In this document: piece by piece, positions 7,029 through 9,452 of the stretch | How positions within the stretch are numbered: position 1 is the first letter of the stretch | Layout: each line of letters starts with the position of its first letter | Source of the DNA: a virus | Lineage: Duplodnaviria; Caudoviricetes | DNA: 64,000 bases | Direction: 5' to 3' (one strand) | IMG/VR virus record: IMGVR_UViG_3300025679_000005 | The notes under the pieces: model-generated | The model's database searches: none | Told to the model about the DNA's origin: nothing | Seen by the model: the letters and a program-made list of their open reading frames with translations, nothing else | Made by a program: the position numbers and the translations under genes

Positions 7029-7604
7029 ATGGAGATCCAAGCGCGTCTAACTCACGATAAGCTCAATCACGCTCAAGACAACAACGTCCAACTCGTAGTC
7101 TCGCTCACAGCTCCTCAGTTGGACTGGGTAGCAAAACGCCCGAATCTCTGCGTAGTCCCAGTTATCGACCTCTCAGGTTCGATGTCAGGTGGGAAGCTCG
7201 AATACGCCAAAGAGAGCATGGGGAAGCTGGTTGACCAGTTGCAGCCAGGTGACATCGTTGGCCTTATTGGATTCGAAGGCCGAATCCACAAGCTGATGGA
7301 ACCCCAGTTGGCGACAGCTGAGGTCAAAACCAAGCTCAAAAACATCATCAGCAAGCTGGGTCCCTTGGGTGGGACTGACCTGAACGGCGGAGTTCTGGAG
7401 GCTTTGCGGATGGTTGAGGGCTTGGACCTTCACCCGAAGTACATCAAGCGTATCATCGTTTTCACCGATGGTGAACCCTCAGCGGGCATTGTAGACAAGC
7501 CTCAAATCCTGAGGCTCCTCAAGGAGAACTTGGGGACCTCTACGGTCAGTGCCTTTGGCTACGGCGGCGGGACTGGTATTCGATTTGCTCTAAGCATCGG
7601 GTGA
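7029..7604 (+). pseudogene. von Willebrand factor A domain protein, apparently C-terminally truncated
   Basis: MIDAS elements VIDLSGSM, GGTD and VFTDG; ends 13 residues after SAFGYG without the last helix/strand of the vWA fold. Confidence 0.6.
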
Positions 7605-7753
7605 CTCGGGACGACTGCGGCATGTGCAATGCCGGCCACTGGGTCAACAACTGGCGGCACATCGCAGGCAGCGTCGTGTTCAAAGTGTCCCCGAGGCTTT
7701 GGCGGTGGTGGGCAAACCTACCCCTATACAAGAGCGCTGGCGCAAGGAACTGA
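7562..7753 (+). pseudogene. Start-less remnant of a small Cys/Trp-rich gene (RRRDWYSICSKH...CGMC...WRWWAN...)
   Basis: Open frame shifted -1 from vWA, with no start codon back to the stop at 7472; its TGA (7751-7753) abuts the ATG of the next gene. Confidence 0.5.
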
Positions 7754-8029: not shown

Positions 8030-8317
8030 ATGCTCGAATCAGTCGGAAAAACCCAGGACGGAAAGACCATCGTCACCGGAGTCTACAAGTTCTATGAGAC
8101 CACAGGGGTTCCTCTGGACTCGATTCTGGGCATCCTCGAAGAACGGGGCATGACCCCCGATTGGATGGCGCTTGTCCTGGAGGCCGTAGAAGCGGGCATG
8201 AAGCCGGATCGGTTCCTCTCAATGCTGGACCCCGCTATTGCCGATTCCTACGGACCAGTCATGAGAGATGAAGTCATTCGCAGACTTCGGCTGCTGACCG
8301 CTCCGAAATCGGTGTAG
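8030..8317 (+). CDS. Small protein resembling a helical segment of alanyl-tRNA synthetase
   Basis: VTGVYKFYETTGVPLDSILGILEERGMTPDW resembles the AlaRS consensus G..AFKLYDTYGFPLDLT..IA.E.GL.VD. Confidence 0.6.
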   Translation: MLESVGKTQDGKTIVTGVYKFYETTGVPLDSILGILEERGMTPDWMALVLEAVEAGMKPDRFLSMLDPAIADSYGPVMRDEVIRRLRLLTAPKSV

Positions 8318-8329
8318 TAACCCCGCCAT

Positions 8330-8899
8330 ATGCAAGAAATCTATATCAGCGTTGATGTCGAGGCGGACGGGCCTATACCAGGACCCCATTCCATGTTGAG
8401 CCTCGGAGCCGTGGCGTTGTTGCCAACGGGCAAAGAAGTAGGGTCATTCGAAGTAAACCTGGAGCTTTTGGAGGGCGCCGTCGGGCACCCAGACACCATG
8501 GCTTGGTGGTCTACCCAGGGAGCAGCTTGGGCTGCTTGCCGCACCAACTTGAAGTCTCCTGTTGTGGGGATGGTCTCCTTTGTGAATTGGGTCAACGAGG
8601 TCTCGGCAAAGAACAGTGCGACCCCCGTGTGCGTTGCCTACCCTGCCGGCTTCGACTTTACCTTCGCTCACTGGTACATCACTAAATTTGTAGGCAAAAG
8701 CCCTTTCAGTTTTGCGTGCCTAGACATGAAGACCTTCGCAATGGCCATTTTGGGGACCCCCTACAGAGGCACTACAAAGCGCACTATGCCTAAGAAGTGG
8801 TTTAAGGACCTGCCTCCGCACGAGCATGTCGCACTGAGTGATGCGCGAGAGCAAGGTCAGCTATTCATAAGGATGCTCCAGCATGCACGACCTACCTGA
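8330..8899 (+). CDS. DEDD 3'-5' exonuclease / exoribonuclease
   Basis: ISVDVEADGP, AGFDF, HVALSDAREQ. Confidence 0.88.
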   Translation: MQEIYISVDVEADGPIPGPHSMLSLGAVALLPTGKEVGSFEVNLELLEGAVGHPDTMAWWSTQGAAWAACRTNLKSPVVGMVSFVNWVNEVSAKNSATPVCVAYPAGFDFTFAHWYITKFVGKSPFSFACLDMKTFAMAILGTPYRGTTKRTMPKKWFKDLPPHEHVALSDAREQGQLFIRMLQHARPT

Positions 8900-9451
8900 G
8901 TTGGGGGGGCTGTACACGATTCACAATCATGTGAACGGGAAGCACTACATAGGTAGTACGTGTAATTTCCGCAAACGTTGGAATTTGCACCGCTGCTTAT
9001 TACGAAATGGGCGCCATCATTCGGCCTACTTGCAAAATGCATGGGACAAGCATGGAGAGGTGGTCTTCACTTTCAATGTCCTGCAAATTTGTGATAGGCC
9101 AACTAGGCTAATGTTGGAGCAGCACTTCTTCGACACCCTGCCTGCTCAATACAACATGAGTCGAAAGGCGACTTCTAGCGAAGGCTGCAAGAGGAGCCCA
9201 GAGACTTCGGAGCGTATGCGTGCCGCTATTTTAGCGAACCCTGTTAGGATGATCCACATACGAGAGTTGGGAAAACAACCGAAGAGTCCAGAGCATAGGC
9301 AGCGAATTTCGGAGGCTCATGAAGGTTTAGTGCCCACAGAACAAACTAGAGCTAAGCTGAGAGCTGCCAGCGCAATCCGTTGGTCTAAGCCTGAAGAGCA
9401 CGCGAAGGCGTCATTAGCAAAGCTAGGCAAACGCTTGCCCCGTAAATCTTA

Positions 9452-9452
<1 letters not shown>
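8883..9452 (+). CDS. GIY-YIG homing endonuclease with NUMOD3-like repeats
   Basis: GGLYTIHNHVNGKHYIGST...KRWNLH...LQNAWDKHG...E...YN; KSPEHRQRISEA. Confidence 0.9.

Follow-up and report, generated by a model that had tools for sequence, protein, structure and literature searches.

Stand-alone domains derived from aminoacyl-tRNA synthetases include the AlaX editing proteins, YbaK/ProX and Trbp111/CsaA, and a shortened viral alanyl-tRNA synthetase (AlaRS), the mini-AlaRS of Tupanvirus, is reported to keep its active site. To our knowledge, no known stand-alone synthetase domain derives from the module with which AlaRS reads the identity of its tRNA. In the E. coli enzyme, D400 hydrogen-bonds the 2-amino group of G3, U70 is held through its 2'-OH by the D400 and Y399 carbonyls together with the G403 NH, and the D400A substitution almost abolishes charging; the E. 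coli contacts were modelled by homology on an archaeal structure (PMC6055181). Huge phages carry translation kits (PMC7162821), and phage KTSC-domain proteins have been proposed to support phage translation (PMC7824862).

The window analyzed here, a stretch of 64,000 nucleotides from a huge phage, contains a gene for a 95-aa protein (Table 1) whose nearest relative is the Asp400/Asp450 part of the AlaRS tRNA-recognition domain (E. coli 3HXU, A. aeolicus 1RIQ, human 5KNN, A. fulgidus with tRNA 3WQY; PF01411 positions ~375–424). The likeness covers a module of 44–56 residues, including the aligned Y-D-T-x-G-x-P turn. Unlike AlaRS, the family of this protein lacks the catalytic, editing and C-Ala domains as well as the N303 helix, and the Asp is mostly replaced by Glu; it has an extra hairpin strand at the N terminus and, at the C terminus, two helices that are unrelated to AlaRS, and in this analysis it was found in phage-like contexts only. 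The use of a single synthetase module on its own is a feature in common with the stand-alone synthetase domains and KTSC proteins, whereas the fold differs and no hydrolytic site is evident in the family. Both the family and the Tupanvirus mini-AlaRS are viral shortened AlaRS derivatives, but the family has no active site. The 95-aa protein belongs with the stand-alone synthetase domains; its homology is solid, the support from gene context partial and the function putative. Our best reading, which we hold tentatively, is that it may assist phage tRNA protection and repair by binding acceptor stems without catalysis. If true, it would represent a natural stand-alone AlaRS identity-reading module, which bears on the minimum size of a G3:U70 reader, and an unrecognized component in the phage–host conflict over tRNA.

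Table 1. Features of the window discussed in the text.
Feature	Position	Strand	Basis or remark
Phage tmRNA	3423..3817	+	G3:U70; candidate ligand in this phage
Truncated vWA gene, 191 aa	7029..7604	+	tblastx; gene order in relatives; at deletion junction
AlaRS-derived family gene, 95 aa	8030..8317	+	ATG start; homologues; purifying selection; AlphaFold2 pLDDT 96.6
Module of residues 13–56, strand-helix-helix-strand-helix	8066..8197	+	homologous to AlaRS ~390–430
YETTGVP turn, counterpart of YDTYGFP in E. coli (Y399, D400, G403)	8093..8113	+	profile alignment; PMC6055181
Two family-specific helices, residues 59–90	8204..8299	+	not AlaRS-derived
Rv2179c-like DEDD 3'-5' exonuclease	8330..8899	+	E=5e-6; neighbour in this lineage only

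The AlaRS-derived module and the C-terminal helices

The start codon of the 95-aa gene directly abuts the TAG of the preceding gene. Comparison with a 72%-identical relative gave pN 0.19 and a saturated pS of 0.88, which indicates purifying selection. The earlier note had proposed that this ORF contains an AlaRS-like motif, and the sequence it quotes is indeed there. For the single protein the likeness is weak: the match to PF01411 (E=0.024, 13.6 bits versus a cut-off of 30.3) is confined to positions 377–416 of the 552 in the model, and the TIGR00344 score is 12 versus a cut-off of 457. At the family level the proposal is upheld. PF01411 was matched at E<0.1 by 71 of 150 homologues (best 2e-7), and the best six matches of the family profile in the PDB were all AlaRS (E 0.016–0.065). 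HHalign aligned the family with 73 bacterial AlaRS segments over 56 columns with a probability of 94.85 and a score of 48.5, whereas the maximum score among 60 column-shuffled control profiles was 26.8.

In the AlphaFold2 model a hairpin leads into three helices and a short strand, and two further helices complete the chain. When the model of residues 1–58 was submitted to Foldseek, the first 14 rows were all AlaRS chains, with an rmsd mostly of 1.3–1.6 Å over 44–46 residues, probabilities of 0.63–0.98, TM-scores by query of 0.59–0.68 and E values of 0.06–2.1. The whole-protein model gave no clear match against the PDB with either Foldseek or VIA, and AlaRS surfaced with the N-terminal half only. 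The VIA row for 3wqy 438–483 was weak (Z 2.6, rmsd 3.2, 44 residues aligned), and the AlaRS rows 3–5 from the Atlas had an rmsd of 2.6–3.1. Matches of the protein to PPR and SinI were rejected as chance helical similarity. With subdomain boundaries taken from PMC6055181 and the residue range of 3WQY, the A. fulgidus equivalent of residues 13–56 is 438–483, the portion of the tRNA-recognition domain in which Asp450 lies. Sequence, profile and fold thus agree with the earlier placement of the similarity in the tRNA-recognition part of AlaRS, and it maps to the residues that contact G3:U70 in the minor groove. Residues 13–56 are homologous to the AlaRS identity-reading module.

The remainder of the protein has a different origin. 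The helices of residues 59–90 are conserved in the family (R61 66%, D72 90%, G75 83%), and HHalign of the C-terminal half against AlaRS gave a probability of 1.1 with a score inside the shuffled range. The same result disposes of a circular permutation, suggested by weak HMMER sub-hits, in which the C-terminal half would correspond to the AlaRS helix that precedes the module. Because residues 59–90 are unrelated to AlaRS, the protein is a novel domain built around a core borrowed from that enzyme and not a broken fragment. The description of the gene product as an AlaRS-like helical fragment is therefore correct for the AlaRS-like part and needs to be revised for the whole, which is a compact domain. 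Prediction of a homodimer returned a score of 0.02, which gives no verdict either way.

A phage family without a catalytic core

A profile search retrieved 840 clusters at 50% identity (E<=0.001), and the retrieved proteins are constant in length, with a median of 101 aa. PHROG 22967, of unknown function, was matched by 47 of 150 members, and the ESM Atlas neighbours are 88–100% viral. Cultured carriers are the Aeromonas Straboviridae CC2 and 65, Klebsiella phage FBKp24, Serratia phage Moabite, Xanthomonas phage XaC1, Dickeya phage JA11, Erwinia phage PhiEaH1 and SNUABM_54; their genomes all exceed 200 kb, and the phages are unrelated. GTDB genomes yielded no member by one subfamily pattern, which is a narrow test. 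No study of the family was found in the literature outside subscription journals.

A search for longer fused forms returned none, which is weak evidence by the tool's own grading. Three members (P0031:275–401, P0036:185–305 and P0112:118–248) are fused to a common C-terminal domain of ~125 aa, for which nothing significant was found in Pfam, NCBIfam or the PDB; its likeness is to proteins with the label 'ADP-ribosylation/crystallin J1', and it may be ADP-ribosyltransferase-like. One subfamily (P0005–P0008, P0014–P0016) has a conserved C-terminal extension of ~70 aa without a Pfam match. In two unrelated phages the gene is frameshifted near codons 33–48 (L026:10001–10240 and L040:9341–9650), by decay or by assembly error, and a 77-aa form without the last helix occurs in another relative (L024). 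Together with a deletion next door in the present genome, these two frameshifted copies and the shortened one might suggest that the gene is the decaying remnant of a captured alaS. This explanation is refuted by family-wide conservation, that is, by the 840 clusters of constant length, the purifying selection and the conserved non-AlaRS half.

The 95-aa protein is not an AlaRS and cannot be an enzyme. As the earlier note had stated for the ORF, it has no catalytic domain, and none was found in the searchable record of this phage, which spans 155 kb and has an estimated completeness of 32%; the protein is also known from a contig of 465,854 bp. Nor was one found in 21 carrier records, 13 of them complete genomes, in which PF01411 finds only the small gene. 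These results bear on the idea that the protein is the small subunit of a split AlaRS and completes a separate catalytic core. The piece is indeed a subdomain-sized unit, but no such core was found with PF01411 in the 21 records, with the phage's own genome of ~465 kb covered over 155 kb, and the C-terminal helices of the model appear to make the fold self-contained. A split AlaRS is thus largely refuted, and we give it very little weight.

Members of the family have nevertheless been named as enzymes. Moabite YP_009849329 is labelled 'alanyl-tRNA synthetase', and XaC1_496 and the Totoro protein are labelled 'alanine-tRNA ligase'. The annotators of Moabite cite InterPro IPR018162 and HHpred at 88–89%, so the resemblance to AlaRS had already been noticed in annotation. 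The 'alanine-tRNA ligase' labels are wrong, because no AlaRS catalytic core was found in the 13 complete carriers. The labels imply an enzyme; at the position of D400 the checked proteins of Moabite and XaC1 carry Ala or Thr. Such names on jumbo-phage genes of 90–130 aa can inflate counts of phage-encoded synthetases.

RNA genes and gene neighbourhoods

The earlier note had placed the gene near a tmRNA/tRNA cluster. In this phage the tmRNA ends 4.2 kb upstream of the gene, and an array of 41 tRNAs lies ~4.6–34 kb upstream. A CUA-anticodon tRNA (G000:C1:131463–131556) lies on the strand opposite to the main array. G3:U70 occurs here in the tmRNA and in tRNA-Ala(CGC). The protein could in principle be a dedicated partner of the phage tmRNA, in line with the G3:U70 tmRNA at 4.2 kb and with the presence of a tmRNA in all five complete metagenomic carriers. 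In those complete genomes, however, the tmRNA is 13–142 kb away from the family gene, and none of the eight cultured carriers has a tmRNA, which makes a dedicated partnership improbable. Three of the cultured carriers have no tRNA genes at all. Co-occurrence with ssrA, which the earlier note had offered as a check, consequently fails as a rule for the family.

The family gene lies within 2 kb of a tRNA in five of ten complete tRNA-bearing genomes, in which 2–20% of positions lie within 3 kb of one. The combined P value is 0.012 by position and 0.028 with a partial small-ORF control in five genomes. This enrichment is modest and suggestive only, because two of the ten genomes belong to related Aeromonas phages. 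tRNA arrays generally attract small genes.

RNA-related neighbours were found in 10 of 19 context groups, which were grouped by eye; nine groups have none. Depending on the group, these neighbours are RtcB, Ro60 with PARG upstream, RRF upstream, a major vault protein or tRNA arrays, within which the family gene can lie. An RNA ligase-like gene lies 10 bp upstream of the family gene in one group, a peptide deformylase 6 bp upstream in another, and in one group the family gene precedes RtcB by 1.3 kb. RtcB occurs in only one of the eight cultured carriers. A recurrent huge-phage cassette (L018:3020–11000, L042, L048, L051) comprises a NUDIX/nucleoside deoxyribosyltransferase-like gene, Ro60 (TROVE-vWA), microbial PARG, the family gene, a small vWA gene and a cytidylyltransferase-like gene. 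The major vault protein homologue (L040:11916–14576) has 887 aa and matches the MVP shoulder with E=5e-29. In Xanthomonas phage XaC1 the family gene is immediately followed by a gene (L012:7327–7707) with weak similarity to DarT-like ADP-ribosyltransferases (E=0.002).

Among the closest relatives the genes are arranged as vWA, RtcB, the family gene, in some cases SpoU, DEDD and GroEL. Comparison by tblastx with the close relative L002 (2159–6496) shows that ~4.3 kb, with RtcB and four smaller genes, have been lost from the window at a deletion junction near position 7565, and RtcB is absent from the 155-kb record of this phage. The gene layout around the truncated vWA gene (window 7029–7753) is the same in the Logan assembly L001. 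The DEDD gene, whose match to the Rv2179c-like model (26.8 bits) is just below the cut-off of 27, starts 12 bp downstream of the family gene; the adjacency to an exoribonuclease reported earlier is thus real in this phage, and it is limited to the phage's own lineage. The locus is flanked at window positions 4059–6247 and 8883–9452 by two HNH genes, a NUMOD3-bearing gene and a GIY-YIG endonuclease gene, the last of which overlaps the DEDD stop codon and is missing from L002. A scan for promoters and terminators gave signal at chance level.

The contact turn and its possible ligands

In the profile alignment, Y22, E23 and G26 correspond to E. coli Y399, D400 and G403; a residue count on the E. 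coli sequence confirmed that D400 is the Asp of YDTYG. Among 150 homologues with a mean column identity of 35%, G26 is the sole invariant column, and T24 (92%) and P28 (95%) are also highly conserved. The Tyr at the Y399 position is kept in the 95-aa protein and in 55% of the family, and the Asp at the D400 position is replaced by Glu. Position 23 is acidic in 122 of the 150 homologues (81%; 96 Glu and 26 Asp), and YDTYG is unaltered in four members. Ala or Thr occupies position 23 in the clade of FBKp24, PhiEaH1, XaC1, JA11 and SNUABM_54 (support 99/95), which includes three tRNA-less genomes and represents a single event. Moabite also has Ala at this position; its placement in the tree, which is poorly resolved, failed. 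The conserved T, G and P of the turn could be conserved for folding alone. The AlaRS helix with N303, which serves the major groove of the tRNA, is absent, and HHalign against E. coli 249–460 aligns from about residue 385 only.

We suggest, from the observed homology and the modelled fold, that the minor-groove-reading module of AlaRS was excised and capped by two new helices, so that it would fold alone. The turn at the helix end (Y/E-T-x-G-x-P) would still dock in the acceptor-stem minor groove, and acid-bearing members would prefer G3:U70 RNAs, namely tRNA-Ala and tmRNA. The new C-terminal helices would stabilize the module and may add contacts. As the gene context suggests, the protein would shield acceptor ends, or hold damaged tRNA or tRNA-like RNA for repair and turnover by RtcB, RNA ligase, Ro60 or the DEDD nuclease. 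In this way it would form an accessory part of the translation-rescue equipment of jumbo phages, in keeping with the translation kits of huge phages (PMC7162821; PMC7824862). Since some carriers have no tRNA genes, the host can supply the ligand. Affinity may be low for the domain alone, because it is slightly acidic (the median net charge of the family is −2) and has neither N303 nor any of the other tRNA contacts of AlaRS. A further and rather doubtful reading is that the protein is a minimal autonomous G3:U70 reader, which would select alanine-identity RNAs (tRNA-Ala, tmRNA and tRNA mimics) and protect them or route them to repair, or would gate host alanylation and trans-translation.

The same data can be viewed from the side of the fold. 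The AlaRS module may have been exapted as a stable scaffold only, with a new surface (W45, E51, R61, D72) that binds a host or phage protein in a role that has nothing to do with tRNA. The net acidic charge, the replacement of the acidic residue in one clade, and the occurrence of the gene in genomes devoid of tRNAs and among arrays of small genes of unknown function are consistent with this explanation, as are the conserved residues that AlaRS does not share (W45 96%, D72 90%, G56 92%). However, position 23 is acidic in 81% of highly divergent members, and RNA-repair and translation neighbours of several kinds recur, which argue against a mere scaffold and lead us to consider it possible, on the unlikely side.

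It is also conceivable that the protein is a mimic or competitor that blocks the G3:U70 site, so that the host AlaRS charges less tRNA-Ala or tmRNA and trans-translation is damped, or that it decoys a host defence sensor or toxin that recognizes AlaRS. An AlaRS surface kept without catalysis would suit such a role, and the spread over jumbo phages that are unrelated, some of them without tRNA genes, implies that the target belongs to the host. We know of no defence system that senses AlaRS, and the published literature searched describes none. Moreover, many carriers encode G3:U70 RNAs or tRNA-Ala genes of their own that need AlaRS. On these grounds we regard mimicry as quite unlikely; an accurate decoy should have retained the Asp, whereas 64% of the members have Glu.
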